64,000 nucleotides of DNA from an uncultured virus (IMG/VR IMGVR_UViG_3300024999_000052) (taxonomy: Duplodnaviria > Heunggongvirae > Uroviricota > Caudoviricetes), in the IMG/VR virus record IMGVR_UViG_3300024999_000052. One strand, 5' to 3'. This document shows positions 9,115 to 29,727 of this stretch, piece after piece. Below the pieces are notes generated by a model, which made no database searches, was not told where the DNA came from, and worked only from the letters and a program-made list of their open reading frames with translations. A program made the position numbers and the translations under genes. Positions within the stretch are counted from its first letter, which is position 1, and each line of letters begins with the position of its first letter.

Positions 9115-9118
9115 AAAT

Positions 9119-9951: not shown

Positions 9952-9972
9952 TTAAAGAAAGAAGGCTACAAA

Positions 9973-13626: not shown

Positions 13627-13699
13627 AAACTAGAGCAAAAACTCTAGTTTTTCTTTTTAATTTAAGCAATACTAAAATTAAATAGGGGAGTGACAGCGC

Positions 13700-13900
13700 A
13701 TGGAAAAATTAACGAATGAGCAATACGCAGTAAACAATTTTAAGCAAAAATTATGGAATGAGTTGGAGCCTAATTTTTTAGAATTTATAAATCAAACAGT
13801 ATCAGAACAAGACATGAAAACAGACAATGAAAAAATCATGTTCTGGCGATTGCAGCAAATCTTAGAAATACTGAAGGAAAACGGAATAGATAAATTTTAG
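13700..13900 (+). CDS. Hypothetical protein
   Basis: RBS and terminator 13899-13926. Confidence 0.65.
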   Translation: MEKLTNEQYAVNNFKQKLWNELEPNFLEFINQTVSEQDMKTDNEKIMFWRLQQILEILKENGIDKF

Positions 13901-14833: not shown

Positions 14834-15094
14834 ATGTCACAAACTCAAAAAGATTCTTTTCTAAAACTTGCTAAAGGTTCATGGCAGTATCAAATCCTGA
14901 AAGACCTGCTATCCAATTCAACTATAACAAATCCTTTAAAATCTCTTAAAGGAAAAGCTCGAAGCTACTCTTCAAAATATCAAACATCATTTTTCGCCTT
15001 ATTGCTCAGAATCGAAAAAGCAGGATATTCTATAACAATTAAATCTGGCCCAATGGGAGGCCAATGGGGATCTACATATACTTTGTCAGTATAA
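14834..15094 (+). CDS. Small basic hypothetical protein enclosed by an inverted repeat
   Basis: ORF; arms 14747-14796 and 15126-15172. Confidence 0.7.
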   Translation: MSQTQKDSFLKLAKGSWQYQILKDLLSNSTITNPLKSLKGKARSYSSKYQTSFFALLLRIEKAGYSITIKSGPMGGQWGSTYTLSV

Positions 15095-15235
15095 AGTTAA
15101 AAATAAATATTCTAATCTCGGAAAAAGAGAGTGGAAATTAAGACAGGAAGCGAGTATAATTGTAAGGGGTAAAGAGACAATTTAGTTTAGCTTAGAGCAT
15201 AGCAACATACTTAAAATTTAAGGAGTTGTTGAATC

Positions 15236-15403
15236 ATGGAAAACTATAACATGTTTGTAAATATTCATCCCGAAAATTACCAAATTATCACGGTTATCTT
15301 TAGTGATGACACAAAAGTTGAAAATGTGGAATTTAATCAAAAATTTTTATACAAAGATGGAAAATGTTTAGGTAGTTGCGCTATAGCAAAATATTGGATT
15401 TAG
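15236..15403 (+). CDS. Small hypothetical protein (55 aa) enclosed by an inverted repeat
   Basis: AAGGAG RBS; arms 15174-15204 and 15422-15452. Confidence 0.65.
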   Translation: MENYNMFVNIHPENYQIITVIFSDDTKVENVEFNQKFLYKDGKCLGSCAIAKYWI

Positions 15404-15517
15404 TCTTTTAACAATAACAAATGCTATGTTCTAAGCTAGGCTGAATTGTCTTAAAACCTCTCTTTCAAGCTATCTTGTTCCTGTATTTGCCCTCTTAATT
15501 AAGAGGAGGAAAATTAA

Positions 15518-15628
15518 ATGAAGCAAAGTATCCAAATCGAAAAACAAGGTTGTACATTAAACCAGTTTAGACCATGTTGGGAATGTCTCAGTTGGACAGA
15601 AGAAGGCGGTTGCCCATATAGAAAGTAA
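15518..15628 (+). CDS. Cys-rich micro-protein (36 aa) enclosed by an inverted repeat
   Basis: GAGGAGG RBS; MKQSIQIEKQGCTLNQFRPCWECLSWTEEGGCPYRK; arms 15459-15495 and 15675-15712. Confidence 0.6.
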   Translation: MKQSIQIEKQGCTLNQFRPCWECLSWTEEGGCPYRK

Positions 15629-15951
15629 AGTAAATTAACAAGTTGTCGAATATCCAATAACAAATACCCACACTAGAGGGTAAACACAAGAACAAGAGAA
15701 GCAAAAAAGAGAGAATTAACCAAAAACATTCTATAAATCCCTTCAGTTTATTCATTATTACAATTTAATCATAACAATTGCTTTAAACTTGCATAACAAA
15801 ATTAAAATGTAGGTTGCTTGCGATTTAATGATAAATTGTATAAACTTAGGCTGAAGGGATTGGATTTTCCGCAAGGTGTAAACTTATAATATATAGAAGT
15901 TTATGAGTTTAGACCTTGGGTAAAAATTTAAAGAATGAAAGAGATTATAAA

Positions 15952-16515
15952 ATGGAAAGAATTTTAACCATCGAAGAAAAGAACTTGACCCTTAGAGAAT
16001 TAATTCAAAAAGTCAATGAAGAGCTAACAGCCAATTTTGTAAAAGATGTTATTTCAAAAGGTTATAACAAATACGACACCGAAAATGGTAGAAAGGTTAT
16101 AGATATTAGTGACGTTCGCAGAATAATTGAAAGGTCAGCGAATGGGAATTACAGCTTTTATACTCAAAAGTTTGATATTGAAATGTATGAAACTAACATC
16201 CTATTCAAAACTAAGCGCAAAAAATCTGGTATGATTGGTTATAATCATACGGATCAATTAACAGTGGTTGAAATATTCACTGAAAGCACTGATTTATTAG
16301 ATATCTCACTTGAAACTATCTATAACGATGCCATTGAAGGTAAAAAGAAACGAGAACAACGCAAGGTAGAAAAGAAAGAGGAAGGAAAACAAATAATCAT
16401 CGACACGCTGAAAAATGCCAACTTATCTTTTAAACAATTTAAATCTTTAATGAACTTATACTCTAATTTAGATTGGGGTCAAAAGCAGGAAATTGAAGAT
16501 TTGATGAGCGAATAA
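15952..16515 (+). CDS. Hypothetical protein, paralog of 10880..11419
   Basis: Sequence similarity by eye. Confidence 0.75.
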   Translation: MERILTIEEKNLTLRELIQKVNEELTANFVKDVISKGYNKYDTENGRKVIDISDVRRIIERSANGNYSFYTQKFDIEMYETNILFKTKRKKSGMIGYNHTDQLTVVEIFTESTDLLDISLETIYNDAIEGKKKREQRKVEKKEEGKQIIIDTLKNANLSFKQFKSLMNLYSNLDWGQKQEIEDLMSE

Positions 16516-16527
16516 CCCTACCACATA

Positions 16528-16557
16528 AAAAAGACATTTCAACGGAGTGTCTTTTTT
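16528..16557 (+). terminator. Intrinsic terminator overlapping an alternative hairpin
   Basis: AAAAAGACATTT-CAAC-GGAGTGTCTTTTTT. Confidence 0.7.
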
Positions 16558-16658
16558 GAACTAAAGCGAACGTGTGTATGAATGGAGTAATTTCCCCTGC
16601 TGTAATTCGTCGCTTAGTTCAAAAAGGACATTTATTAAGTCCTTTAAATTAAAGGAGA

Positions 16659-16859
16659 GTGCTAAAAATGACAAACAATGATCAAAACATCCTAAATGAA
16701 ATGCACAGGAAATTTAGTGAGCTTGCCGGATTGCAGAGCGAATTATCACAAGACGCTCAACAAACTATTTTAACAATGCATGGAGAACATTACACGGTTG
16801 CCCATTGTGTAAGGTGGGGAGAAATTGCAATTTCTGAAGTTATAGACGAAAATAATTAA
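16659..16859 (+). CDS. Hypothetical protein
   Basis: ORF with AAGGAG RBS. Confidence 0.65.
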   Translation: MLKMTNNDQNILNEMHRKFSELAGLQSELSQDAQQTILTMHGEHYTVAHCVRWGEIAISEVIDENN

Positions 16860-16952
16860 TTCTTAAAGTTGATTGTAAGTGTACGCAAGCTAAACATATT
16901 ATAACAAAAGCTTGCGTATAGTTGGGAATCAATTATTAAGGAGTGGTATTAA

Positions 16953-18272
16953 ATGAAAGAAATGCTAGTAAAAACTTTTGGAATTGTGGGTTTAGTTGGT
17001 CAATTAAAATCAGGTCAAATTAACCGTGATGCTGAAATGCAACGTTCATTCGTGTGGGGTAACAAAGAGCAAACAGACCTAATTGACTCTGTATTTCAAG
17101 CTTTAACGACTTATATTCCACCTATAATTGGTGCTGAAACTGAGGTCGAAATTGAGATAAAAGGTAAATTAGAGAAAGTCATTGATCTTTTGGACGGAAA
17201 ACAGCGCAGTACCACACTTGAAAGATTCTTAAACGATGAAATAAAATTAGGCCATAACATTCGGCCTGTTGTCATTGAGAATGAAGATGAAACAGTAGAA
17301 ACATACATAGTCGCAGGTAAAAAATGGAGCGAATTACCGGACAGAGCAAAGCAAGTTTTCAAGAACTGTAAAATTCAAATGGTCTATTTCAAAGACATGA
17401 CACAACAGGAAAGAGAATTGCAGTTTATCAAACTCCAAGGAGGAAAGAAGTTAAGTAATGCCGAAGTTAACAAGGTTCGCATTGGTGATGAGGTTAGAAC
17501 ATTTATCTACAAGCAATTAGCAACAGATTTATGGACTAAATTCATTAATGTTTCAGCGAACCGAGAAGTAAAATTTGAGACTATGCAACAGGTTCTAATG
17601 GTTATGACTAATTCATTTGATCTTTCCGGCAAATCATTGCAAGAATTTTCGGAGGATTCTATCATGGTCGATGCTGAAACCATGGCACAAGTCGAAAGAG
17701 TCACAGAATATCTCAATGAAGTTGTAAAATTCATTAAAAAATTCTCTTTACCTGCAGAACTTCAAAAACTTGAAGAATCTGAAGTAATAGCAAAACTCGA
17801 ACCTAAAGAACTTAAGAAGTATCAGAAACCTATTGAATATCTCAAGAAGGTTCATGTCTCAGTTATCTATAACACGGCACTCAAGGCCATTCTGAACGAT
17901 ATCAGCGCAAAGGGTTTTGCTAAATTTGTTGCTAAATTCTTCTTTGATGTTCCTGCTAGATACAAAAGGTATACAGAGTCTGATACCTCTAGCGCATCAA
18001 GTGGAAAAATTAGAATTGAGGAAATGGATAAGGCACTGGTCAATGAGTTCAAAATTGTTGCAAAGGTTGCTGAAGTAAAAGTTGAAGAGGTTGAACAGAT
18101 TCAAGAAGTTGAGCCAGTAATTGAGCAAGAGGAACAATGGGAACAATCTTTACAAGTTGAAAACCTCGAATCTATCATAACAGATGAACCTGAAGAGTTC
18201 GGCAATAACGAAGAAGATAAGCAAGACGCTCAGTTAATCATTGACATTACAAATAATGCCAATGTTGCTTAA
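16953..18272 (+). CDS. DUF262 (ParB/Srx-fold, GmrSD N-terminal-like) protein with acidic tail
   Basis: QRSFVW, LIDSV..IPPI, LLDGKQRSTT, FIKLQGGKKLSNAE. Confidence 0.8.
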   Translation: MKEMLVKTFGIVGLVGQLKSGQINRDAEMQRSFVWGNKEQTDLIDSVFQALTTYIPPIIGAETEVEIEIKGKLEKVIDLLDGKQRSTTLERFLNDEIKLGHNIRPVVIENEDETVETYIVAGKKWSELPDRAKQVFKNCKIQMVYFKDMTQQERELQFIKLQGGKKLSNAEVNKVRIGDEVRTFIYKQLATDLWTKFINVSANREVKFETMQQVLMVMTNSFDLSGKSLQEFSEDSIMVDAETMAQVERVTEYLNEVVKFIKKFSLPAELQKLEESEVIAKLEPKELKKYQKPIEYLKKVHVSVIYNTALKAILNDISAKGFAKFVAKFFFDVPARYKRYTESDTSSASSGKIRIEEMDKALVNEFKIVAKVAEVKVEEVEQIQEVEPVIEQEEQWEQSLQVENLESIITDEPEEFGNNEEDKQDAQLIIDITNNANVA

Positions 18273-18432
18273 TAATCTTTAGTAGTTTTGAGCCTATGCG
18301 TTAAGATAATAACAAAGGCTTAACGCATTGTCGGAAAAACTTAAAAGGAAATTTATTTAAGGATGTGATGAATATTGATTGTATTTATTTAATTTAAAAT
18401 CTAAATTATAAAATGAAAGAAGGAATATTTAA

Positions 18433-19185
18433 TTGACAAAAGTTAAAACCGAAAATAGACTTGGAGAATTTTCTAAAAATAGACACGGAAGTATTATGCA
18501 AATAGTTAAATATAACAATTCGGAGAATGTGGAAATAAAATTTGATAATGGGTATATTACAAATTGTTGCTATAGAGTATTTAAAAAAGGAGAAATATCT
18601 AATCCTCTTGATAAAGTGTATTATAATGTTGGTTACTTAGGAATTGGTGAATACAAACAAAACATTAGATCATATTCTATCTGGCAAGATATGTTTAAAA
18701 GATGTTATAGTGAAAAATATTTAGTAAAGTACCCTACATATATAGGGTGTACTGTCTGCAAAGAGTGGTATAACTTCCAAGTTTTTGCTAAGTGGTATGA
18801 TGAAAACTATTACATAATACAAGGTAAAAGAATGGAACTTGATAAGGATATACTAATAAAAGGGAATAAGGTATATTCTCCTGAAACATGCGTATTTGTT
18901 CCACAAGACATAAATTATTTGTTTGTAAAATCTAATAAGTCAAGAGGAAAATATCCAATAGGCGTATATTTACATAGTGACAAGGATAAATTTGTGGCAC
19001 AGTGTCATGATATTAATAAGAAAATGGTGTATTTAGGTAGGAGTAATACTCCAAACGAAGCTTTCAAGGTGTATAAGGATTATAAAGAAAAACTTATAAA
19101 GGATATTGCTGATATGTATCGAGAACTAATACCGGAAAAATTATATAAAGCTATGTATTCATATATAGTAGAAATTACAGATTGA
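18433..19185 (+). CDS. Phage HNH-type homing endonuclease-like protein
   Basis: WQDMFKRCY..YPTYIGCTVCKEW..ELDKDIL..YSPETCVFVP; C-terminal AP2-like PIGV..YLG. Confidence 0.75.
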   Translation: MTKVKTENRLGEFSKNRHGSIMQIVKYNNSENVEIKFDNGYITNCCYRVFKKGEISNPLDKVYYNVGYLGIGEYKQNIRSYSIWQDMFKRCYSEKYLVKYPTYIGCTVCKEWYNFQVFAKWYDENYYIIQGKRMELDKDILIKGNKVYSPETCVFVPQDINYLFVKSNKSRGKYPIGVYLHSDKDKFVAQCHDINKKMVYLGRSNTPNEAFKVYKDYKEKLIKDIADMYRELIPEKLYKAMYSYIVEITD

Positions 19186-19295
19186 CTTAATAATTCTTAA
19201 ATAATTGTATCTGTAATCTAGACAATAACAATTGTTAACTTGTTATTGTCTAGTATTCGAGGTAAAGTTATTAAAACTAAAGGAGTGAAGTTAAA

Positions 19296-19529
19296 ATGAA
19301 AAGATATGCAAAGGAAATTGAGGGTTATATATTTGTTGGCAATACACCAAGCGAAGGAGACTTACCAGAACTGAAGAATGTTAAATATCAAATTGGTGAA
19401 CTTGCTCTAGATATTCATGGAAAAGTAATTGACAAAAACCATATGCTTCCATTATTTGTGGCAAAAGAAAGTTATGATGAATACAACAGAATCATGATGG
19501 CACAGTTGAGCGCAATCAGGAATAGTTAA
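19296..19529 (+). CDS. Hypothetical protein
   Basis: ORF with RBS. Confidence 0.65.
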   Translation: MKRYAKEIEGYIFVGNTPSEGDLPELKNVKYQIGELALDIHGKVIDKNHMLPLFVAKESYDEYNRIMMAQLSAIRNS

Positions 19530-19749
19530 ATCATATTTTCAAAATACTATGAGAAACCCATGCAAAATTGTAAAATAATTATTTAGGGAATTAGCCTTAA
19601 TTCCCTTCTAAGTTCATACTAAAAGTGATATAATATATATCATAAGATTATGAGTTTAAAAGGCAATTGTGGATAATACTTATAACAATTGGCCTAGAAT
19701 AAATCAAAGGAGTAAAGTTTCGAAATTAAGAAAGGAAAGGAGTCTTAAA

Positions 19750-19968
19750 ATGAATGAAAAAGTTATGGCAATGAGCGACGAAGACTTAAAAACTGCATTT
19801 GAAGAATTTAGTGCTCACGAAAGAACACAAGTCCTTCAGGATGGAATCATTAAAAATCTAGCAGAAGAAGCGAGTAAAGAGGATGAATTTACAAATTATG
19901 GAATGTTAATTATGAATGTAGAATATGTGCTTCTAAAAGAAATGGCAAGAAGATTTTACATGTCTTAA
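19750..19968 (+). CDS. Hypothetical protein (family with 38998 and 62663)
   Basis: MSDEDLK..LLKEMARRFY resembles the ExAKR-ending paralogs. Confidence 0.65.
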   Translation: MNEKVMAMSDEDLKTAFEEFSAHERTQVLQDGIIKNLAEEASKEDEFTNYGMLIMNVEYVLLKEMARRFYMS

Positions 19969-20083
19969 AGTCCCTTTGATGGTGCTTTTACTTCAATTGA
20001 AAAATTACAATCTTTTCAAATTGAAAATCCAATTAGTTCATATGAGTCGTGGGAAATCGAAGAATTTAAAATTATAGGATAAA

Positions 20084-20150
20084 GGTCGATACTAGCACCA
20101 AATTCAACAACAGTGCTAGTATACACGTTAAGCGTGTACTGATGATGACC
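20084..20150 (+). ncRNA. Hammerhead ribozyme, type II, variant core (GAUA instead of GAAA; extra U after CUGAUGA)
   Basis: GGUC-GAUA-CUAGCAC..GUGCUAG-UA-UACACG/CGUGUA-CUGAUGA-U-GACC; predicted cut after A20121. Confidence 0.75.
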
Positions 20151-20176
20151 AAAAAATTAAGAAAGAAGGAATACAT

Positions 20177-20566
20177 ATGAAAAAGGAATTATTAGCAATC
20201 AGAGTGGAGACCACTAACAAATTGACACTGAGAGTTATTGACTCACTTCTTGACCGTGAAGAAAACGAAATCGAGGGATATATTGAAGACTTAATGCAAC
20301 ATGGTTGCCAATCTGGTATGGTTTCAGAGCTTATTTATTACCATGACACTGTAAAGTTCTATGAGGAATTTAAAACTGAAATTAAAGCAATGTTCAAAGA
20401 ATCTCTAGAAGAAACTGGTTTTAAATCTCCTAAAGAATTGTTTGGAGATAAATGGGATGACGAGGACTTTTTTGCAGAAGAGGATTTAAACAAAAATTTA
20501 CTAGCGTGGTTCGCTTATGAAGAGACAGTAAAAAACATTGCTTATCAATTGGAAATGGATGTTTAG
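20177..20566 (+). CDS. Acidic phage protein (HGCxSG..LIYY family; possible DNA mimic)
   Basis: HGCQSGMVSELIYYHDTVKFY; D/E rich. Confidence 0.7.
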   Translation: MKKELLAIRVETTNKLTLRVIDSLLDREENEIEGYIEDLMQHGCQSGMVSELIYYHDTVKFYEEFKTEIKAMFKESLEETGFKSPKELFGDKWDDEDFFAEEDLNKNLLAWFAYEETVKNIAYQLEMDV

Positions 20567-20567
20567 A

Positions 20568-20639
20568 GCCATACTGAGGAGCCTTAAATTAGGCGAAACT
20601 AGCATAAATTCTATAACAGAGTTAATGCTAGTCTATGGC
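20568..20639 (+). ncRNA. Hammerhead ribozyme, type I
   Basis: GCCAUA-CUGAGGA-GCCU/AGGC-GAAA-CUAGCAU..AUGCUAG-UC-UAUGGC; all three stems pair; cut after C20633. Confidence 0.93.
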
Positions 20640-20669
20640 AAATAAGGCCAATTAAATTAATGAAAGAGG

Positions 20670-21257
20670 TTGTTTGAAATGACAAAAACTGTAAATGTAA
20701 ATTCATCCAAGAATCAAGATATTAAAGGTAAATTTGTTTCTCGCGAAGTCCTTTCCTGTGTTACTGGAATGGTGGAATACATAATTAAACAAGGGTTCGA
20801 GGACAGAGAAGCACCATTTAGTCTTGATGATTGCTCCAATTACTACACGGATAATTCAGGTAAAATTGAGGAGTTAACAGAAAAGAAAGAGCAATTAGAG
20901 GAAGAAATTCAAGACATTGAAAATAGTATTGAAGAACTAGAAGACGAAGATGGAAACAAAGATGAAGAAATACAAACAAAAGAGAATGAAAAAAATAAAC
21001 TTGAAGAAAAAATTTCTTCAATTGAAAACAAAATTGAAGAATTGGAAGAGGAACAGGGCGAAGTCAATGAACCTTATGAGTGGTGGATTGTTTCAAGTTG
21101 GTTATGTGACAAACTAAAAGAAAAAGGTGAAGTTGTTTTGGAAGATGAAAATATATGGGGCAGACAAACTTCAGGCCAAGCGATTCTCTTGGATAGCGTA
21201 ATTTCTGAAATATGCTCAGATATGGGAATCTTAGAAGGTCAAGAACACGAATGGTAA
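20670..21257 (+). CDS. Acidic phage protein with coiled-coil insert
   Basis: EPYEWWIVSSWL..WGRQTSGQAILLD; E-rich heptads. Confidence 0.7.
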   Translation: MFEMTKTVNVNSSKNQDIKGKFVSREVLSCVTGMVEYIIKQGFEDREAPFSLDDCSNYYTDNSGKIEELTEKKEQLEEEIQDIENSIEELEDEDGNKDEEIQTKENEKNKLEEKISSIENKIEELEEEQGEVNEPYEWWIVSSWLCDKLKEKGEVVLEDENIWGRQTSGQAILLDSVISEICSDMGILEGQEHEW

Positions 21258-21260
21258 AAA

Positions 21261-21327
21261 GTCACACTGACGAGTTCTAAATGAACGAAACTAACCTGAA
21301 ATACTATATAACAGGTTAGTATGTGGC
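21261..21327 (+). ncRNA. Hammerhead ribozyme, type I
   Basis: GUCACA-CUGACGA-GUUC/GAAC-GAAA-CUAACCUG..CAGGUUAG-UA-UGUGGC; cut after A21321. Confidence 0.92.
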
Positions 21328-21362
21328 ATTGAAGCTTTAAAATGAAGGAGTGTATATTTATT

Positions 21363-21758
21363 ATGACCAATACAATTAATTCTAATGAATTTCATGTTGC
21401 TTTTACTTTATCTAAAACAAAGGTTTTCAACGTAAGTTACTATACATTAGGAAGTAATAAATCACCATATTTTAGCACTTCAGCAGAAGTATTCAATAGA
21501 CCAAAAACTGATTGGAGTCAATGCGGTCAATGTCAAGGGGAAGTTTTAAAAGGATACAGGATTGCAATGAGTTTTTATAGAAAATGGGACGAATTACACT
21601 TAAAAGAATTGTCCGAAGATCAATACCAAGAATTACTTGAAAACCTTGAAGAACTATTTTTAAAATATCCTTATTTACTAGAAGAAGATAAGGGAATTGG
21701 ATTAAGAGATATTTCTTTTAGTAGAGTAAAAGATTTTTCAATGACAGTGTATAGATAA
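21363..21758 (+). CDS. Hypothetical protein
   Basis: AAGGAG RBS before ATG 21363. Confidence 0.7.
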   Translation: MTNTINSNEFHVAFTLSKTKVFNVSYYTLGSNKSPYFSTSAEVFNRPKTDWSQCGQCQGEVLKGYRIAMSFYRKWDELHLKELSEDQYQELLENLEELFLKYPYLLEEDKGIGLRDISFSRVKDFSMTVYR

Positions 21759-21891
21759 TTACCTCAGAAGCAATAAATAATTATTTTGATAATGCCTAAA
21801 CTCCTGCAAACTGTATAACAGCCATAACAATAGATTGCAGGGGTTTGGAGTTTATCAAGAAATTATGATAGACTGAAGGAGGAAGCACACA

Positions 21892-22083
21892 ATGGATATT
21901 TTAAAAGATGGTACTAAGGTTAAAGTTTATGATCTTTTAGGTGAATTTGTTGAAGGAATTATTCAAGGTAATGATGAATCAGAGTGCGAAGGTAATCTAA
22001 AAGATTTGAATTATTATGTTGTAGTCGATGGAAATTTTGACAATGAAATTATGATACATTGGACGGAAATTGAATTGATTTAA
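21892..22083 (+). CDS. Small acidic hypothetical protein
   Basis: GGAGG RBS. Confidence 0.65.
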   Translation: MDILKDGTKVKVYDLLGEFVEGIIQGNDESECEGNLKDLNYYVVVDGNFDNEIMIHWTEIELI

Positions 22084-22161
22084 ATTTTCCCAGAAAACTT
22101 ACAATTTATGGTATTAAATGGCATAATTAGTATAACAGCAAGCCAAATTTAGTTCATGGGT

Positions 22162-22190
22162 TTTACATACGCACGCACGTATGTTATACT
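22162..22190 (+). promoter_or_regulatory. Promoter with operator-like spacer
   Basis: TTTACA-TACGCACGCACGTATGT-TATACT. Confidence 0.6.
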
Positions 22191-22233
22191 TACATTATCT
22201 TACTACATCACTACATCAAAGGAGGTTACAAAA

Positions 22234-22377
22234 ATGCAAGTATCTCTAAACACTCGAATTGAATTAGAATTACGTCAACGCTTAGACATCTATGTTAAAA
22301 AAACTAATAAATCAATAGCTCAAATTACTGCTGAAGCAATTGAAAAATATTTAGATGAAAAGGAGAAAAAAGAGTAA
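22234..22377 (+). CDS. Ribbon-helix-helix (CopG/Arc-like) regulator
   Basis: VSLNTRIELELRQRLD..KSIAQITAEAIEKYL pattern; AAGGAGG RBS. Confidence 0.75.
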   Translation: MQVSLNTRIELELRQRLDIYVKKTNKSIAQITAEAIEKYLDEKEKKE

Positions 22378-22384
22378 ATTTTTA

Positions 22385-22413
22385 TTGACGTATGCGTGCA
22401 AGCGTGATATGAT
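22385..22413 (+). promoter_or_regulatory. Promoter with related operator-like spacer
   Basis: TTGACG-TATGCGTGCAAGCGTGA-TATGAT. Confidence 0.6.
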
Positions 22414-22466
22414 GTTATTAATCAAGTAAATATTATTTATTAATTTATGAAAGAAGTGATTTAAAA

Positions 22467-22733
22467 ATGTTTAGCAATGAAGAGGAAGAAGTCATGGGAA
22501 CCAGAATCCAAAAAGTCAAAAGCACTATCGATAAAATATTAAAAGATTGTGTAAATGAACTACCAGAAGTCCAATTTGGTTGGAGTGGATCTACTATTGA
22601 GGTTTATTTGTCTGGCGGTAATTATCAAACCAGAAATGTCATTGAGAACCATTTTGTACACAGCAAGAAATATAGAGGAGTTGAGGTGTCAAATAACGAT
22701 ACCCAAAAACATATAAGTTTTACTCTTACGTAA
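22467..22733 (+). CDS. Hypothetical protein
   Basis: ORF downstream of promoter. Confidence 0.6.
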   Translation: MFSNEEEEVMGTRIQKVKSTIDKILKDCVNELPEVQFGWSGSTIEVYLSGGNYQTRNVIENHFVHSKKYRGVEVSNNDTQKHISFTLT

Positions 22734-22762
22734 AAACTTAGAATAAAAAGGAGTGTTTCAAA

Positions 22763-22972
22763 ATGGAATATGACAAAGAAGATTTTAAGGAAATGATTAA
22801 AGACTGGAAGGCAGACAATTCTCCAGAAATGGATGATCTAGAAGTTATTGAAATAGAATTTCTTGAAGATACTCAAGAATGGGTTGCTGTCGCGGAAGAT
22901 GATAAAAGTTCATATTCATTAACCGATGATGGATTGGGAAATATTGTTATCAATTATTCAGGTACTCGTTAA
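22763..22972 (+). CDS. Very acidic small protein
   Basis: D/E-rich 69 aa, AAGGAG RBS. Confidence 0.7.
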   Translation: MEYDKEDFKEMIKDWKADNSPEMDDLEVIEIEFLEDTQEWVAVAEDDKSSYSLTDDGLGNIVINYSGTR

Positions 22973-23031
22973 CAGAGGACTACAGCTTAAAAACTGTAGT
23001 AATGTGCAAGGCATTGTTCCAAGTTATGCCT
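22972..23031 (+). ncRNA. Twister ribozyme, circularly permuted (type-P5-like)
   Basis: ACA-GA-GGA, P1 CUACAG/CUGUAG, UAA-UGU-GC, P4 AGGCAU/AUGCCU with loop UGUUCCAAGUU; UCC/GGA pseudoknot; predicted cut U23000/A23001. Confidence 0.72.
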
Positions 23032-23080
23032 AAACTAAACCTGTTAGCTCTAAGGGAGCAAGGTCAAAGGAGTTTTAAAA

Positions 23081-23323
23081 ATGAGAACATTAACAAAAAC
23101 TGAATGGAAAAGTATTAAAATTGGTAAACTTGATAACCCCTTATCTATTGAAGAGTTCAAAGGACTTTATGGAATTTCTGACGAAGAGTATTATAAGGCA
23201 GAAAGGCAAGGATCTTGTTTAAATGAATATGGAAATTTAGAGATTACTTTTAACGATGATGAAAACGATATGCTTACAGTAGAAATTTATCGCGAACAAA
23301 TTACCCATATTTATACTAATTAA
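23081..23323 (+). CDS. Acidic hypothetical protein
   Basis: AAGGAG RBS. Confidence 0.65.
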   Translation: MRTLTKTEWKSIKIGKLDNPLSIEEFKGLYGISDEEYYKAERQGSCLNEYGNLEITFNDDENDMLTVEIYREQITHIYTN

Positions 23324-23425
23324 TTTAATTGACAATAGTATTGGCTGAAGGTTGCACACCAATAATTCTATAACAATTTGGCGTGTGACATTGAACCAAA
23401 ATATTGTTGAAAGAGGGAATATGTC

Positions 23426-23914
23426 ATGTTAACAATCAAAAAACTTCAAGATGCCAAAAAGGAATTATTAAAACGTGGTGGAGCAATTTATGTTGTGTAC
23501 TCTGCTGAAAAGGTTGAAGTTTGGGTTAATTCTGGAGGTTACAGTGCGGTGTCAATGGGAACTAATGTAATTCAAATTCTTGACGAAGGACAAATTAAAT
23601 ATGATAATGTGTTCTATCAAAGTAAAAATCAAGAGATGAGTTTGCAGGAATTTTGTGATATGGTAAATAATGAATATTTTCAAGATGAAATTAAAATGGA
23701 AGATGCTACGCTTATTAAGTCTTATAATATTGGTGGAAAAACTACAGAACTACGTTTCACTCCAAAAGCCAATACTCAAACATGGCCCGGATATGACGAT
23801 TCATTATCTTTGCGTTACACTGGTTATTGGTATGGGACTTATGATCATCATGAACATATCGGAAAGACTAAGAAGGAAGCACTGGAATATCTTGCAGGAA
23901 ACTATGGGATTTAG
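23426..23914 (+). CDS. Hypothetical protein
   Basis: ORF with RBS. Confidence 0.65.
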   Translation: MLTIKKLQDAKKELLKRGGAIYVVYSAEKVEVWVNSGGYSAVSMGTNVIQILDEGQIKYDNVFYQSKNQEMSLQEFCDMVNNEYFQDEIKMEDATLIKSYNIGGKTTELRFTPKANTQTWPGYDDSLSLRYTGYWYGTYDHHEHIGKTKKEALEYLAGNYGI

Positions 23915-24000
23915 TTTATTGAATTGAATTTGAATTCAATGCACCATGAATCTACAATCTCTATAACAATCATGGGGTATCGGTTCGAGGTAAAATTAAT

Positions 24001-24264
24001 TTGAAAGTGGGAATTAAAATGTCTAATGATAAAACTCCTAAAAAATGGAATGATGAAAATTACCTTGTAAAATTATATGATGTAACATGGGAAGTTCCTA
24101 GAATTGAAGTTTATTTAAATGACAATTGCATTACTATTATCCACAATCCTAGTGAGTTAGTAGAAAACCAAAACGGAGATTCAAGATTCTATTATATCTT
24201 ACCTGAGATTGTGGAACGAGTAGTTAGTAAATTTTTAGACGAGTTAAAACCTAGTAAACAATAA
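24001..24264 (+). CDS. Hypothetical protein
   Basis: ORF track; probable start ATG 24019. Confidence 0.6.
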   Translation: MKVGIKMSNDKTPKKWNDENYLVKLYDVTWEVPRIEVYLNDNCITIIHNPSELVENQNGDSRFYYILPEIVERVVSKFLDELKPSKQ

Positions 24265-24289
24265 TTTTAATTGAAAAGGAGTTTTAAAA

Positions 24290-24574
24290 ATGCATCAAAT
24301 GGAGCAAGTAAAATTAGCTAACAAATTAATGGAAGGGGAGAAAGAATTCAATAAGTCATTACCTTGCAAAGAAATAACTATGACCGCAGAGCAAGCCAAA
24401 ATTTATATCAGTAAATATGTCATTCCTCAATGCAACAAAGGAAATGAAGCAATTCTAAGAGAGTTAATATTTTCATTGTCTAATGTTGATTGGAGCAAAG
24501 CAGGGAACATTATTATCCATGAACATCCTGAATTGATTCAGGAACGAATTGACAGGGATTTAATAAGCAAATAG
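24290..24574 (+). CDS. Hypothetical protein
   Basis: AAGGAG RBS. Confidence 0.65.
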   Translation: MHQMEQVKLANKLMEGEKEFNKSLPCKEITMTAEQAKIYISKYVIPQCNKGNEAILRELIFSLSNVDWSKAGNIIIHEHPELIQERIDRDLISK

Positions 24575-24669
24575 GGCAATCAAAGCCCTTTTAAAACCTC
24601 CAAACTAGCAATAACAGCATAACATCATAATTGCAGAGCTTGGAGAGTTTAAAAGACTTTGATTAAATT

Positions 24670-25137
24670 TTGAAGCAAATGAAAGGTGGAATACATATTA
24701 TGAGCAAAACTGTAAGTCAAGTTAAAGAATGGTTCACAACATTAGAGGTTAATGCAGAAATTAAATTCAACGGAAAAACACTTTCTATCAATGGAACTAA
24801 TTTTAGAATACCTAGAACTGAAAATCTTGATACTAGAATTAATTTTGATGCAAAGGTCGATTCTTTCATACGGAGTCTATTCCCTGAAAGTATGGAAATT
24901 GAGTTGACTGAGAAATATGCTCAACTTTCCAACGAGTTAAAATTGCAACAAATTAGCATTGACTTTTCACGAATTAATTACAGTTCATACTGCTCTAGAA
25001 ATATCAAGCGTAGCATAGAAGATGCTAAAAAATTACTAGAATTTGTTTCTACTTATCCTGAATTTTATTCAATCATCGAAAAATATTCTGCTTATAGGAG
25101 TCTGATTGAAATGGGATGGGATGATATTATTGAATAA
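24670..25137 (+). CDS. Hypothetical protein
   Basis: ORF track; probable start ATG 24700. Confidence 0.65.
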   Translation: MKQMKGGIHIMSKTVSQVKEWFTTLEVNAEIKFNGKTLSINGTNFRIPRTENLDTRINFDAKVDSFIRSLFPESMEIELTEKYAQLSNELKLQQISIDFSRINYSSYCSRNIKRSIEDAKKLLEFVSTYPEFYSIIEKYSAYRSLIEMGWDDIIE

Positions 25138-25370
25138 AATATTAAGGTGAGTTCTTAGAATCTTAAAATAAAATAAAAGGAGGTAATAATAATGGCAGGA
25201 GTTAACTTAAAACTACTCAAAGAATTCAGAACTTTTTGTGAAGCATATCCTCAAGTGCCATTTACAATGGATGCGTTCGATAAATTTATTGCTCATATTT
25301 CTAAGTAATCTTACATACACTAAAGCAAACCAATACCATAAAATAAAATTAATGAAAGAAGGTTAATCAA

Positions 25371-25661
25371 ATGCAAAGACCTAAAAATATCAAAAACTTA
25401 ACCCATTCTGCTTCCATGCTTAACTCCCTATACTTAGGCAAAGAAATTGTTTACACTGGCACAGGACATTCCCTAAGACCTTACAGGGGAGAAATTATTA
25501 ATATTGCATATTATTCAGACTTAGATCCTATTCCATATGCAGAAATTAAATTAAAATTATGGAATAACCGGACAGTAACTAAAATTCTCCCATTGTCAGA
25601 AATTATTCTAGTATCTTCTTTGAAGAAAACTAAAACTAAAAAATCTAAGGTTGCAGCATAA
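25371..25661 (+). CDS. Hypothetical basic protein
   Basis: ORF with RBS. Confidence 0.6.
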   Translation: MQRPKNIKNLTHSASMLNSLYLGKEIVYTGTGHSLRPYRGEIINIAYYSDLDPIPYAEIKLKLWNNRTVTKILPLSEIILVSSLKKTKTKKSKVAA

Positions 25662-25814
25662 TTTGTATTACTTATGGATACATGGTATAATACTTAAAAT
25701 GCAAATATAATTATTGCAAATTGTATTATACCATGTAAAAATTAAGGGATACAAATTGGTAAGTAAATATCTCATTTTCTCTATAACAATGAAGGTTAGG
25801 AGGTTAGAGCCATA

Positions 25815-26075
25815 ATGTCAAACATAAATATACTAAAATCTAATCATGATATTATTCTTAGGGAAGCAAGTCAAAAAGGATTTAATTATACTGGAGATAA
25901 TTTATTCACATTTATTCAATGGAAATCAAAAGGTTATATGATTACAAGAGGTCAGAAGGCTTTCATTATGCTTTATCTCTGGAATCAAGGCGAGAACAGA
26001 AGGAAGGTACTAACTGGACTCTTTACATCAGATCAAGTACAGAAAAGTCGATGTAATCAATTAGTTGTGGTATAA
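25815..26075 (+). CDS. Hypothetical protein (ArdC N-terminal-like TFxQWxxxGxxxxKG motif)
   Basis: LFTFIQWKSKGYMITRGQKA..LF..DQV. Confidence 0.55.
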   Translation: MSNINILKSNHDIILREASQKGFNYTGDNLFTFIQWKSKGYMITRGQKAFIMLYLWNQGENRRKVLTGLFTSDQVQKSRCNQLVVV

Positions 26076-26142
26076 TCTGTATAACACGGACGTTACAGAG
26101 ATTCTGGATCATTTTGTAAATTAATTAATTGGAGGTTTTAAA

Positions 26143-26340
26143 ATGAATGAAGAAATTGACATCCAAATTAGTTTTACTCCTCATCCTTGGGATAATCAAA
26201 AAGAGCCTTATTTCTGGATTATTCTAAAAGGTAATGATTCTAAACATAATGCAGGATGTGGATGGGCAGAAAGTCCTCAGAAAGCATGGAAGAAAGCTAA
26301 CGAATATTATGAGAAGCATGTTAAAAATGTAATGTCATAG
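26143..26340 (+). CDS. Hypothetical protein
   Basis: GGAGG RBS. Confidence 0.65.
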   Translation: MNEEIDIQISFTPHPWDNQKEPYFWIILKGNDSKHNAGCGWAESPQKAWKKANEYYEKHVKNVMS

Positions 26341-26416
26341 AACTATTATTTCATGCAGAATACCATAACCGCAAACCCTTATAATAGTAGGGTTTCAGGG
26401 GTTGACGATTTAGAAA

Positions 26417-26761
26417 ATGAAAGAAGGTAATTTAATGTTAAAAACAAAAATTTCCATAACAAAATGGATTAGAGAAAATTTTATTAATGGAGAACTCCTT
26501 GCTGAGTTTATAGAATTTACGAATTTGCATGAGTTTATTTTAGAAGGAAGAACATTAAAACCAGAATATATGGAAAAATACGAGACTTGGAGAGAAAAGT
26601 ATTTATCAGTTTTTAACAGCATTAAAGACTACCCTGAAATAGAAATAGTCGAACGGTTTGGAAATGAAACTCATAAGACAATGAGAACACCTTTGAATTA
26701 TATGTGGTATATGTATGCAAATGATGCTAAAAAGAGAAATAAACTGTTTAAAACAGCTTAA
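26417..26761 (+). CDS. Hypothetical protein
   Basis: ORF track. Confidence 0.6.
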   Translation: MKEGNLMLKTKISITKWIRENFINGELLAEFIEFTNLHEFILEGRTLKPEYMEKYETWREKYLSVFNSIKDYPEIEIVERFGNETHKTMRTPLNYMWYMYANDAKKRNKLFKTA

Positions 26762-26892
26762 AAAGCAAGGGTTAATAGAGTGAAAATAATTTATTTGTTT
26801 TTATTCTTAGAGTACATTATAATAATTAGTGTATTCTATAGAGTGAAAACTCTAAAATTATAAAAAGAGGAGGGTAGAAAGAAACTTAAATA

Positions 26893-27822
26893 GTGATAAA
26901 TAAAAAGGAGAGATTAAATAATTTGGCAAGTCTAAAACAATTAGAAGCGATAGAAAGATTAAAAAAGGCTAAACTAGAACGTGAACATAAATTAGTTGAT
27001 GGAATAGATTATAAATTCTGTAGTATACATCACACCCATTTCCCAGGTGAAGACATATGGTTTCCTGCTACAACAGAATATTTTTATTACCATAGTAAAA
27101 ATAAGTCAGACTATTTATACCCTTATTGTAAAAGATGTGCAAGTAAAAAAGGAGTACAACAATGGAGAGACGATCCGATTAAACATAGGGAAGCACATAG
27201 AAGATATGAAAAAACTAAAAAATTTAAAATATGGATGCGAAAAAACCAAATGGAATCTGTTGATTATATGGTTCAATATAGAAAAGATAACCCTGAAAAA
27301 ATGAGAGGATATACAAAAAATCATAGAATTCATGATATTACTGAGGCAGAATGGAGAAGATGTTTAAAGATATTTGATTATAGGTGTGCATACTGTGGAA
27401 TAACTCAAGAGGAAAGTTTAAGAATACATAAACAAAAATTGCATAAAGATCATGTAGATTATGAAGGTTATAATGACTTAAGAAATGCTGTGCCAGCATG
27501 TAGGAGTTGTAATAGTAAAAAACATCAATATAATATGGAAACATGGTTCAAGGAAGAAGAATATTTTAATGAAGAAAGTTTGTCTTTTATTTATTGGTGG
27601 ATAATTGAAGGATATAAGGATTATATAGAAGATAAACCTCCTTACAGAATAATTAAAGAAAAGAACAAAGATAATGATAAATTCCATTGGAATTTATGGA
27701 CAGTAAATGAATATAGAAATACCATTGAAATAGTTATTACAAAGAATAAAAAGAAAGAAATAACAATAGAAATAGAGAGAGGGATTTTAAATGAAATATT
27801 AACACTTGAAGTAGCAAAATAA
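26893..27822 (+). CDS. HNH endonuclease (paralog of 59041..59940)
   Basis: CAYCG..HKDHVD..DLRNAVPACRSCNSKK. Confidence 0.85.
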   Translation: MINKKERLNNLASLKQLEAIERLKKAKLEREHKLVDGIDYKFCSIHHTHFPGEDIWFPATTEYFYYHSKNKSDYLYPYCKRCASKKGVQQWRDDPIKHREAHRRYEKTKKFKIWMRKNQMESVDYMVQYRKDNPEKMRGYTKNHRIHDITEAEWRRCLKIFDYRCAYCGITQEESLRIHKQKLHKDHVDYEGYNDLRNAVPACRSCNSKKHQYNMETWFKEEEYFNEESLSFIYWWIIEGYKDYIEDKPPYRIIKEKNKDNDKFHWNLWTVNEYRNTIEIVITKNKKKEITIEIERGILNEILTLEVAK

Positions 27823-27941
27823 TATTAGTTATAAACCTAGACTATTTGTAAAGACTATGATAGTCTAGGTTTATCTTTAAGTTAGCAGGGTTTATAACAA
27901 TCATGCTAGGTGGTATAACAAATAACAGGAGGATGATAAAA

Positions 27942-28400
27942 ATGTCTAAAATAACTTATAAGGACAAATTAACTATAACTCTTGATAAAAATGATATGGT
28001 TCAATCAATTGAATGCACTCTTCCTATTTTGGGAGAAGGTATGGACAGAATAGTATACGAGTTATCAAATGAAAGAGTATTAAAAGTTGCTAAGTCAATC
28101 AGAGCGTCTTGTATTAATTGGGATGAAATTACAATTTTCGAAAATATAAAAGGAAAGGAATGTATTGTTCATTTCCCAATTGTTTATGAGTATGAAGAAA
28201 GTTATGGGTTCTGGTATGTATGCGAAAGGATTACTATGTCTTCTCAAGCTATGACGGAGGTTTTAAAGTTCGTTCCTTGTTTAGACTGCTCAGATAATGC
28301 AGGTTATAACAAAGAGGGTAAATTAACTATTGTAGATGCAGACAGATTAAATTGGACTTGGTTTGTTAGAAGTGAAAATCCATATGCTAAGAATGAATAA
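27942..28400 (+). CDS. Protein-kinase-like fold protein
   Basis: LGEGMDRIVY..VLKVAK..N..E..NAG..IVD. Confidence 0.55.
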   Translation: MSKITYKDKLTITLDKNDMVQSIECTLPILGEGMDRIVYELSNERVLKVAKSIRASCINWDEITIFENIKGKECIVHFPIVYEYEESYGFWYVCERITMSSQAMTEVLKFVPCLDCSDNAGYNKEGKLTIVDADRLNWTWFVRSENPYAKNE

Positions 28401-29448
28401 GTCCTATCAAAAGTAAAGTTTATTGTATTTAAGAAAGGGGTGAACAATATGAATTTAGAATTAACTCAGAAAGAAAATGAAGTTCTTTATAACTTTTTAG
28501 GTAGTCTTAATTATTATGAGATTATGGCTATATTGTGCAAGTCTTATCCTGAGAAAGAATTAGAAGAGGTAAGTGCTATCTTGACTAAGATTACAAGAAA
28601 AGTAGAAATCTAATCTATTTAAAGAAAGGAATGATTTATTATGGCATCTAGACAAATAGCAGAAATCAAAGCATATGAATATGACACTAAAGAAGAAATG
28701 GAAAGAGAAATTTATGCCTTACGTGATTCTAAAGAATGGAAAGTGCAAAATACTTATGAATTGAATGAAAAATGGAGAGCAGAATATTTTAAGATTAATC
28801 TGTGATGTAATTTAAGTTCATATTCGCCATAACAGAGAGTATATAACAGCAAGGGGTATGGCGTTGTGGGCTTATATTATAGCATCGGTTGCTAAAATAA
28901 ATATTAGGAGGAAATTATTATGAAAATACCAAAAGACAATCAATTCACTTATAAAATAAGTGACGGAATGATTAAAGGATATTTTAACATTTATCAAGGT
29001 AGAGGTGGTAAGATATGTTTAAGTATGGGTGAAGCAGTAACTCCTTTATCCAAGGAACAAATTCAAGAATTACACATAGATTGCTATTCTCTTATTGATT
29101 TTGATCATGAATTATATATGAAAGCTTATTTGTAACTTAAAATGTTATTTTTATGTGGGGATAGAAAGGAGAATAAAAATGAAAATCAAACATTCTTGTT
29201 GGTGTTGCCTCCTGCTTAATGCGGATAAAGTTGAATCTAAATTCTGTGTCAAAGGTCACAAACTTAAATTTATCTTCAATATTAATGAATGCTCAGACTG
29301 GGATGGTTAACCACAAAATATCAATAACAGAACTGCCATAACAAATCGACCATTATTTTGGCAGTGAATTATAGAATTTTTATTTATTTTAGCATTGTAT
29401 TGACTTACTTTGTATTTTATTGTATACTGATAATACGGTAGAAAGGAG

Positions 29449-29727
29449 GTGAAAATAAAAATGACAGTAATTGACCAAAGCAACTTATTCAATCTGATTT
29501 CTCAATATAATAAAATTGATTCTACCACTATAAAGAGAAATATAATTAGATTGATTGATGATTCTCAGTACCATAAAAACATACCCGTATTAGCCAGAAG
29601 ACTTGACGTAAATGTAAATACCGTATACGGATGGAGACAACCACAGCGAAAATTAAATGTTGGATTTGAAGCAGCATTAAAATTATCTCATGCTTTAGGA
29701 GTTAGTATAACAGAATTAATGAAATAA
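29449..29727 (+). CDS. XRE-type HTH regulator (paralog of 34320)
   Basis: LARRLDVNVNTVYGW..ALKLSHALGVSITELM. Confidence 0.8.
   Translation: MKIKMTVIDQSNLFNLISQYNKIDSTTIKRNIIRLIDDSQYHKNIPVLARRLDVNVNTVYGWRQPQRKLNVGFEAALKLSHALGVSITELMK

Follow-up and report, generated by a model that had tools for sequence, protein, structure and literature searches.

A hexamer dense on one strand of an early block and avoided on that strand elsewhere suggests an undescribed one-way signal in SPbeta-like phages

Only a handful of polar genome words have been described, among them Chi, KOPS/SRS, Ter and cosQ, and each of them has pointed to a DNA machine. Many short oriented sites in early genes are also familiar from the stoperators of mycobacteriophage L5 and the sites of MazF (UACAU) and T4 RegB (GGAG), all of which follow the direction of transcription; the hexamer described here, ATAACA, resembles them in number and placement but follows the genome strand across divergent arms. 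The stems that accompany it share with the early RNA stems of T7 and SP82/SPO1 the form of long imperfect intergenic duplexes that lack U-tracts and end at the next Shine–Dalgarno sequence. However, those RNase III sites are not known to carry a strict loop hexamer, and cleavage of the present stems is a prediction from their shape.

Chi is, like ATAACA, a short polar word independent of gene context; RecBCD or AddAB reads it on one strand while moving (PMC10250240, available text). ATAACA differs in showing no leading-strand excess in the host-type DNA sampled, which may not come from true hosts, and in being avoided outside one block. The nick sites of T5, phiKMV-like phages and tf are likewise asymmetric one-strand words, denser toward the left end and of unknown function. 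They are, however, at least 9-mers, are missing from the other strand and are not described as avoided elsewhere in the available part of the source (PMC3517423), whereas nicks at ATAACA are hypothetical. Escape from Type III restriction-modification or MANTIS systems, as far as the available text describes it, also depletes an asymmetric hexamer on one strand across the genome (10.64898/2026.09.23.753747); here one block is strongly enriched in the very orientation that is otherwise depleted, so that inverted pairs are created. Finally, it has been proposed that clustered prophage hammerheads divide polycistrons into RNAs of gene length (Perreault et al., 2011; PMC3088659). As here, several hammerheads, type II included, flank single small early genes, but the accessible part of that report describes neither a shared loop word nor genome polarity, and most slots in the present locus hold non-catalytic stems.

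The window—the whole 64,000-nucleotide stretch analysed (IMG/VR record IMGVR_UViG_3300024999_000052)—belongs to a group of SPbeta-like temperate phages. The hallmark genes lie outside it, and the assignment is made via a close relative (G001, DUF262 protein 95% identical), which has a YonO-type polymerase, YonE/F/G-type portal and terminase, and divergent late and early arms. A megablast search found no close cultured relative, and no tRNA genes were found in the window. Its main regions are as follows.

1830–4190, no strand: non-coding divergence region, skew flip from G-rich to C-rich near 3400; putative virion-end junction
4192–14700, + strand: pre-block rightward genes; ATAACA 0 observed, 4.4 expected
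13625 and 13899, + strand: two intrinsic-terminator-like sites inside the pre-block genes
14924–29712, + strand: early block of small genes, its top strand dense in ATAACA (26 spacer and 12 coding sites)
14924, 15032, 15246, 16064, 17254, 17869, 18177, 18512, 26456, 27760, 28306 and 29707, + strand: the 12 coding-sequence ATAACA sites
16953–18272, + strand: DUF262/GmrSD_N (ParB-like) gene, 439 aa
29713–64000, + strand: post-block rightward genes; top-strand ATAACA 7 against 11 expected, opposite orientation 16 against 20

By analogy with the 264-bp terminal repeat of the cultured phage Perkons, the divergence region may be the junction of both virion ends; the skew flip there was found in the window and nine other records examined (10/10). 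No intrinsic terminators were found on the + strand between 13.9 and 31 kb of the window.

The original prediction placed ATAACA at 25 spacer positions of the block, on the + strand, and held the word to be nearly absent from spacers outside it. All 25 positions were confirmed, and a 26th copy lies at 27922. The block spacers (31 segments, 3554 nt) hold 26 sense and 4 antisense copies, against a mean of 2.7 and a maximum of 9 in 2000 dinucleotide shuffles, while the other spacers (94 segments, 8571 nt) hold 3 sense and 4 antisense. Spacers of at least 60 nt carry the word in 18 of 25 cases within the block and in 3 of 43 elsewhere. Among all hexamers in the block spacers ATAACA ranks first, above Shine–Dalgarno words; it is strict, with no enrichment of any one-mismatch neighbour, and its consensus in the window block is H-ATAACA-R (best form H-ATAACA-G/A). 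What had been missed is that the word is also enriched in the coding sequence of the block and avoided on the top strand outside it. Because the block excess is offset by this avoidance, the count for the whole window on both strands is ordinary (89 against 90.8 expected).

Eleven records were compared, with ATAACA counted (observed/expected under a synonymous-codon null) on the top strand and in the opposite orientation.

Late leftward genes: top strand 46/158.7, opposite 225/218 (late-arm figures not inflated by the choice of borders)
Between late genes and junction: top strand 13/52.6, opposite 53/73
Pre-block: top strand 4/14.4, opposite 6/8
Block including coding sequence: top strand 251/122.8, opposite 46/57 (inflated, the block borders having been drawn after the counts were known)
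Near right: top strand 59/109, opposite 108/124 (inflated for the same reason)
Far right (rightward genes): top strand 33/114.4, opposite 132/135

The word reaches 2–4 per kb on the top strand of a 15–20 kb early hypervariable block near the left virion end, with selection against it on that strand in every other segment. It ranks first of 2715 hexamers and occurs in every possible reading frame. Right-arm mRNAs avoid AUAACA (84/221); late leftward mRNAs keep AUAACA (245/267) yet shun UGUUAU (55/188), and the avoidance therefore tracks the genome strand and not the transcript. Within the late genes ATAACAG (1/22) is more avoided than in the right arm (16/46), and top-strand ACAACA, the variant that tolerates G-U pairing, is not avoided (166/152). 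G017, a contig without the block, still gives 3/20.9 and 4/21.8. Content also follows position and not gene identity, since 30 genes within the block give 25/14.2 and their homologues outside it 12/16.2 and 4/5.3. These counts suggest an undescribed one-way signal, as opposed to a plain mRNA tag, and ATAACA is probably a polar signal of genome direction, read in one pass.

Perkons shows the same pattern as the other positives. Its block lies approximately 5–27 kb from the left end, with 29/16.4 in coding sequence and 24 spacer sites; the right arm gives 11/22.4 and the late arm 5/17.4. According to the available text, its termini are annotated as 264-bp repeats at the divergence (PMC13245101). 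The window block begins approximately 11 kb from the putative end and those of other records at 0–5 kb, so the distance is not fixed. The trait is evidently dispensable, because it is absent from eleven relatives, SPbeta included, and positives and negatives are scattered on the YonO and TerL trees. A Psychrobacillus phage and a contig from a Tissierellia assembly carry the word, which was not found in phages of C. difficile, Enterocloster or Thomasclavelia, in the DUF7222-linked loci L001–L012, or in the early regions of Sundance and EfV12-phi1, both of which have repeated promoter-like words. In the negatives, no other clustered and avoided hexamer of comparable strength turned up. Avoidance in TerL loci (28 clusters of 80 loci) was 26/94 under 32% GC against 63/76 above; a low-GC or clostridial host is nevertheless not a sufficient condition, phiCD211 (26% GC), TR-TP1 and PMBT24 being negative.

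As had been proposed, the block spacers fold into long stems (z at or below −2 in 11 of 19 spacer stretches folded), including the following.

15745–15875, + strand: long stem with sites 15771 and 15793 (z −6.6)
16860–16945, + strand: predicted long stem with loop site 16901, 3' arm reaching the Shine–Dalgarno sequence of the gene at 16953
18280–18345, + strand: predicted stem with loop site 18309
19195–19285, + strand: predicted long stem with site 19225 base-paired, an exception to loop display
21775–21865, + strand: long stem with two loop sites, 21815 and 21824 (z −6.5)
23330–23412, + strand: predicted long stem with loop site 23370
24584–24663, + strand: predicted long stem with sites 24611 and 24619
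28806–28895, + strand: predicted long stem with sites 28829 and 28843

The stems have the shape of RNase III substrates: a duplex of about two turns, small internal loops and no U-tract. The suggested sequestration of a ribosome-binding site at 16861–16941 is in keeping with the predicted fold, which extends to the AAGG of the next Shine–Dalgarno sequence; in relatives this slot is filled by unrelated looped stems. That the word lies "usually in the loop" proved partly right, with 14 of 26 spacer sites in the loops of deep stems and those at 15657, 19225 and 19682 mostly paired. Conservation of loop display in related phages was recovered, the word being kept on unrelated stems in 31 of 110 spacer families; in these phages its density is 34.6 per kb in loops against 2.8 in exterior single strands, and the top strand is the folding strand (198 G-T against 60 A-C). 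The stems also fold as DNA, the top strand slightly better in 4 of 4 pairs, and one family of nine sequences shows two-sided change in 3 of 24 pairs. In distant positives most sites lie in coding sequence or unstructured spacers, and looped spacer sites number 6/38 (G005), 7/22 (G009) and 6/26 (G010). An antisense extended −10 promoter (TGnTATAAT) was rejected, its final T (A at −3 on the + strand) occurring at only 7 of 26 window sites and the needed A at a fraction of 0.35 of 172 sites in relatives. A boxA of a nut site is a CUCUUUAACA-type word; this reading was also discarded, TTAACA being seen 6 times against 20.7 expected in the block spacers.

Hairpins and hammerheads fill equivalent intergenic slots. 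The window has three hammerhead folds, two canonical and one aberrant, all inside the block and on the + strand.

20084–20150, + strand: type II hammerhead-like fold with ACAACA in its stem III loop; predicted cut after 20121
20177–20566, + strand: DUF7222 gene, between hammerheads 1 and 2
20568–20639, + strand: type I hammerhead, canonical core, predicted cut after GUC 20633 (26.1 bits)
21261–21327, + strand: type I hammerhead, canonical core, predicted cut after GUA 21321 (27.0 bits)

Both type I copies have CUGANGA, GAAA and NUH joined by three stems. A scan at Rfam gathering thresholds returned no matches, the cut-off of RAGATH-1-hammerhead (RF03152) being 56.3 bits against 27.0 and 26.1. 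In the type II copy GAUA replaces GAAA and a further U follows CUGAUGA; judging from these core deviations, it may be slow or inactive. The motif had been placed in or at the stem III loops and was recovered there: site 20613 lies in the loop, site 21308 at the loop–stem edge, and the first copy carries ACAACA instead. In one hammerhead family the word is present inside the block (L061, L069) and absent upstream of it (L068, L081).

The explanation we prefer, though tentatively, is a stop or pause word acting in one direction during genome entry, laid over a processing layer of RNase III and hammerhead type. ATAACA would serve for stopping, pausing or cutting, since the opposite orientation, where a loading signal would carry a cost, is neutral here; the word would be read as a single strand, because of the loop display, the G-U/G-T-rich stems of the top strand and the lack of helical phasing among the sites. 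Its reader would ride a machine that passes over the entire genome a single time, starting at the left end, as the DNA enters. In the simplest form entry would be coupled to transcription, and the word would be encountered in nascent RNA of top-strand sequence, antisense RNA over the late arm included. The block would slow passage while early anti-defence genes are expressed, and the remainder would have to pass freely. As a separate layer, the long stems (RNase III-type by shape) and hammerheads would cut the early polycistron into units, and in the window's subclade their loops would be the favoured place for the word. That entry is the process concerned is possible, but somewhat doubtful. 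It is on the unlikely side that AUAACA in nascent RNA loops, ribozyme loops included, is read by one factor and brakes polymerase-driven entry of the 135–200 kb genome; RNA polymerase would then pull the genome in one way, antisense over the late arm, with a brake only on the first anti-defence genes. Against entry, dense pause sites in genes that need fast expression are counter-intuitive, the disparity in ATAACAG between late genes (1/22) and right arm (16/46) is not predicted by a uniform one-pass machine, the distance of the block from the end varies, the trait is scattered and dispensable, and distant positives show loop display only weakly.

No phage gene tracks the trait fully. The DUF262 gene is block cargo in seven positive records, but was rejected as a universal reader: it was not found in G009 or Perkons, G008 has only a weak match outside the block, and L076 has a 62% identical copy yet no sites. 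The distribution of TerL, TerS, YonO and initiator genes does not match that of the trait either; the TerL of G002 is 21–23% identical to those of other positives, the TerS of negative G012 is 68% identical to those of G001 and G005, and initiator-like genes differ among positives. A 126-aa gene beside TerS occurs in six positives and no negatives; it was not found in G002, G003, G008, G011 or Perkons, and had no informative atlas match. Of ten positive or weak records (the window apart), eight have a PhoH gene (PIN-PhoH in 7), against 0 of 8 negatives; none was found in the incomplete contigs G009 and G017 or in complete Perkons. PhoH2 is an RNA helicase-RNase, proposed in the available text to load on loops (PMC7390352). 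Phage MazF-like genes occur in both positives and negatives.

The original prediction ascribed all sites to one RNA-binding factor governing an mRNA-processing regulon. Much of its basis stood—a strict word, favoured in loops, conserved on unrelated stems, on a top strand that folds, in equivalent slots—but it is not a complete explanation. A purely RNA reading failed, since with an mRNA-binding factor AUAACA should be avoided in every non-target mRNA, yet the late mRNAs retain it (245/267). In general form, one RNA-binding protein or sequence-specific RNase (MazF-, RegB- or PIN-PhoH-like) would read AUAACA in early mRNAs and process, repress or destroy them via loops and coding sequence. The absence of enriched one-mismatch neighbours, the loop display, the avoidance in right-arm mRNAs (84/221), and the distribution of PhoH (8/10 against 0/8) with the activity ascribed to PhoH2 (PMC7390352, available text) all fit. 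Such a reader is nonetheless unlikely: late mRNAs shun UGUUAU (55/188) instead, so that sense is not followed in both arms, no PhoH was found in complete Perkons (nor in the incomplete G009 and G017), MazF-like genes do not discriminate, and ACAACA goes unavoided in late genes (166/152). One-strand avoidance and loop display would be accounted for without antisense transcription if the top strand served as lagging template or was displaced at a rightward fork or in a rolling circle, where a nuclease or pausing factor at looped ATAACA would start concatemer formation near the junction and cuts elsewhere would be harmful. The folding of the stems as DNA (top strand slightly better in 4/4 pairs) and the block's proximity to the junction are in keeping with this. 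However, the sign change of GC skew near the junction does not suggest one-way replication, initiator-like genes vary among positives, and exact-match contigs show no coverage step at 12–22 kb (weak evidence, being contigs only), and we consider it decidedly unlikely.

Packaging offers another setting, in which a terminase moving right to left is slowed or armed before its final cut, or virion DNA is nicked on one strand as in T5 and tf. Perkons has its ends defined at the divergence, and nicks in tf, by the available text, are asymmetric, lie on the top strand and become denser toward the left end (PMC3517423); but terminases do not track the trait (TerL of G002, 21–23%; TerS of negative G012, 68% to G001/G005), and the opposite strand, described there as without sites in tf, is here unaffected at 0.7–1.0 of expectation, which makes packaging quite improbable. 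It is very doubtful that the word belongs to the host, whether as a Chi-like AddAB stop at the entering end or through strand-biased escape from a Type III- or MANTIS-like system, even though Chi is polar (PMC10250240, available text) and one-strand depletion is a known signature of Type III and MANTIS escape in the text available (10.64898/2026.09.23.753747). The block creates inverted pairs instead of removing them (251/123 on the top strand, opposite near expectation). In 400 kb from two Tissierellales genomes, perhaps not true hosts, the leading strand shows no Chi-like excess of either orientation (TGTTAT 204/181, rank 347 of 3449; ATAACA 192/211), and the word's occurrence in the Psychrobacillus phage and Tissierellia-assembly contig but not in C. 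difficile, Enterocloster or Thomasclavelia phages also counts against a host word. Nor is much probability left to a terminator for the phage polymerase YonO, moving leftward through the right arm, with UGUUAU in its RNA, until the block stops it. The available account describes YonO as a processive polymerase with little pausing (PMC5467207), and ATAACAG avoidance is strongest in late genes (1/22), yet in the segments that would then be shielded the word is avoided to the same degree (pre-block 4/14.4, upstream of late genes 13/52.6) and positives and negatives intermix on the YonO tree.

In ATAACA, enrichment near one end goes together with avoidance on one strand throughout the genome, and the word is kept from groundwater phages to a cultured Psychrobacillus phage. 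SPbeta itself lacks it, which makes that phage a natural control. How SPbeta-like phages enter, replicate and form their ends has, by the available text, hardly been studied (PMC8270828), and ATAACA provides a mutable handle on all three. By themselves the hammerheads and stems are further examples of known element types; the ATAACA layer offers a context for clustered phage hammerheads.

Among contigs matched to 11–31 kb of the window, strain joints fall at spacers.

The following landmarks of the window are used throughout:
14924..29712 (+): the block, an early region of small genes
4192..14700 (+): rightward genes of the pre-block
16953 (+): start of a 439-aa DUF262/GmrSD_N gene
near 3400: the junction, where the leftward late arm and the right arm diverge

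It had been proposed that ATAACA (AUAACA as RNA) recurs on the top strand of the block's spacers, usually in hairpin loops. Every position listed for it was verified on the + strand, and the excess over shuffled sequence is clear: 31 block spacers (3554 nt, curated gene borders) carry 26 sense and 4 antisense copies, while in 2000 dinucleotide-shuffled versions the count averaged 2.7 and never exceeded 9. ATAACA ranks first among all hexamers in these spacers; the window's 94 non-block spacers (8571 nt) hold 3 sense copies. Loops of deep stems hold 14 of the 26 sites, and 11 of the 19 spacer stretches folded have z ≤ -2.

The 439-aa gene, used as a query, recovered 4 viral and 40 metagenome loci. 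Across 39 of these, many closely related (three duplicates removed; window, L072 and L045 left out), block spacers (49.8 kb) contain 301 sense and 21 antisense copies, and upstream spacers (28.4 kb) contain 0 and 16; none occurs in the spacers of L076. Among 218 representatives clustered from 331 unique spacers, terminal loops of stems of at least 10 bp hold 79 of 183 ATAACA sites versus 31 of 653 words of the same composition, and no one-mismatch neighbor is clearly enriched. Long-stem loops contain 34.6 copies per kb, compared with 2.8 for exterior single strands and 2.6 for stems; of 110 spacer families, 31 include looped copies. The slot upstream of the 439-aa gene is occupied by several unrelated stems among the relatives. 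Opposed mismatches in stems favor G-T over A-C (198 versus 60; arm composition predicts a ratio of 1.6), and covariation is modest in one nine-sequence stem family (3 of 24 pairs). For the window and its close relatives, then, the original prediction was correct in describing a strict, loop-favored word carried on unrelated stems.

Several other features were noted. TCGA turns up repeatedly in 3' stem arms (9 versus 1 of 32 families), and TGTCGAA, the Spo0A box sequence, occurs five times on the + strand and never on the - strand of the window (including 2924, 2934, 3269, 11409 and 15644). Direct reading revealed a related pair of promoter-like stretches (TATAATATAT...TATGAGTTTA) at 15881-15910 and 19629-19660. 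Within 22162-22413, a ribbon-helix-helix gene (22234-22377) is flanked on either side by a sigma-A-type promoter, both with related palindromic spacers, and is probably autoregulated. At 15230-15674, 22972-23342 and 28787-15421, contigs of co-occurring strains attach differing genes to identical spacers, which is consistent with module shuffling.

A descriptor search finds three hammerhead folds in the window, every one inside the block; the first departs twice from the core, and Rfam scores stay below threshold. In one hammerhead family, the word is present in two in-block copies, where it is mostly paired, and absent from two upstream copies. Clustered hammerheads in prophages are already known (PMC3088659). 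The early block of the cultured Psychrobacillus phage Perkons (MT325768; L389:9347-9420) also contains an unannotated type II hammerhead fold with ATAACA ahead of it.

The bias extends into genes. Against a null of synonymous codons shuffled gene by gene, ATAACA is in excess in block coding sequence, rightward non-block genes avoid it, and leftward genes avoid TGTTAT but not ATAACA. Pooled over ten records, observed over expected top-strand counts are 228/115 in the block, 55/188 in the left arm and 84/221 in the right arm, with block borders drawn after the counts were seen and the late-arm figure independent of them; the opposite orientation gives 45/54, 245/267 and 229/244. ATAACA ranks first of 2715 hexamers in this pool. 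A finer split of 11 records, Perkons among them, puts it at 0.25-0.29 of expectation for four segments (late genes, the stretch upstream of these, the pre-block and the far right arm) and at 0.54 immediately right of the block. G017, a contig without a block, gives 3/20.9 and 4/21.8. A de novo scan of 16 records ranked ATAACA first for combined clustering and avoidance in six (G001, G005, G008, G009, G010 and G013), and homologous genes carry more sites when in the block than when outside. The word is predicted by position, not by RNA module. The original prediction identified a real and conserved feature but underestimated its scale: a strong, genome-wide one-way word, reaching beyond the spacers, overlies an ordinary-looking RNA-processing layer. 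In open-licence PubMed Central and bioRxiv, neither this word nor any clustered-and-avoided polar word of SPbeta-like phages was found described; "motif" and "ribozyme" are absent from the main text of the Perkons paper (PMC13245101), as are AUAACA and ATAACA from the text of a non-coding mapping preprint (10.64898/2026.10.21.760802).

The relatives share terminase, portal and YonO-type polymerase homologs and SPbeta's divergent two-arm layout, and terminase relatives are present in Paenibacillus, Tissierellia and Clostridia assemblies. Of 24 long records surveyed, 12 are positive (the window, G001-G005, G008-G010, G013, G017 and Perkons; G004 is a near-duplicate of G002), one is weak (G011) and 11 are negative (G006, G007, G012, G014, G015, G019, SPbeta, BUCT082, PMBT24, TR-TP1 and phiCD211). 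Pooled, five negatives come to 71/75, 142/147 and 28/29; the G019 late arm, at 3/9, has little power. In distant positives, sites lie mainly in coding sequence, with few looped spacer sites. G003 has a separate tight cluster at 46.2-46.8 kb (L037), roughly 2 kb to the right of the junction, with seven top-strand sites, five of them in one spacer. YonO-like polymerase genes also occur in small Tissierellales chromosome elements (L290, G087:C10 near 203.8 kb; L296, G083:C7 near 34.4 kb), away from structural genes; the gene order of L076 looks similar.

Avoidance in one orientation alongside neutrality in the other is consistent with a word that signals a stop, a pause or a cut to something that would traverse the entire genome a single time, always in the same direction. 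Stoperators, RegB, boxA, SP82 sites and MazF UACAU are comparators. Loop display and variable site spacing without helical phase point to single-strand reading. A factor acting on mRNA is one rival and a YonO terminator another. Quick terminase and YonO trees, with long branches, intermix positives and negatives. A host recombination or restriction word was also weighed; 400 kb of host-type DNA from two Tissierellales genomes, which may not be those of the true hosts, shows no Chi-like excess. Replication, and packaging or nicking, are further rivals. According to the SPbeta review (PMC8270828), the pac site lies near yonP-yonR, where the arms diverge, and Perkons has a 264-bp terminal repeat at its divergence (PMC13245101). 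A G-to-C skew flip is seen at the junction in Perkons, the window (near 3400) and eight other records examined, and the window's virion ends may lie there.

Tentatively, we prefer entry from the left end, since transcription-coupled entry would unite polarity and RNA loops in one model, and since the block's small variable genes have anti-defence-type relatives: a weak, below-cut-off ArdC-N match in the window, annotated ArdA in the block of Perkons, and LPD29 and DUF4942 in G001. This model would require antisense transcription of the late arm, and the mechanism is directly testable in a cultured phage.

No phage gene compared across positive and negative records fully follows the trait. Of ten positive or weak records besides the window, eight have PhoH (PIN-PhoH in 7), versus 0 of 8 negatives; as a candidate reader it was not found in complete Perkons, nor in the incomplete contigs G009 and G017. 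Several SPbeta-like phages carry a PIN-PhoH (PhoH2-like) gene between HU and YonO (L020:5804-7027 (-) and homologs), its presence overlapping in part with the word's occurrence.

Other words are also biased. TACATA is enriched, in mRNA sense, in SPbeta, BUCT082, G006, G007, G008, G011, G015, G019 and Perkons (members with a higher GC content or with Bacilli hosts); the MazF site is TACAT. The coding sequence of the window and G001-G004 lacks AGATCT entirely (G001: 0 where 30 would be expected) and is strongly depleted in AGTACT, a pattern that resembles avoidance of restriction sites. In G007 and G011, top-strand avoidance of TATAAT in both arms exceeds its bottom-strand avoidance in the late arm. 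A GCGTGTG...TTACATTA element, probably a phage promoter or operator, is repeated across many early spacers of Sundance (L017). Finally, at 347-1829 the window pairs a radical-SAM-like gene with a class II tRNA-synthetase-like one, and at 60754-61338 it has an RNA 2'-phosphotransferase (KptA) gene.
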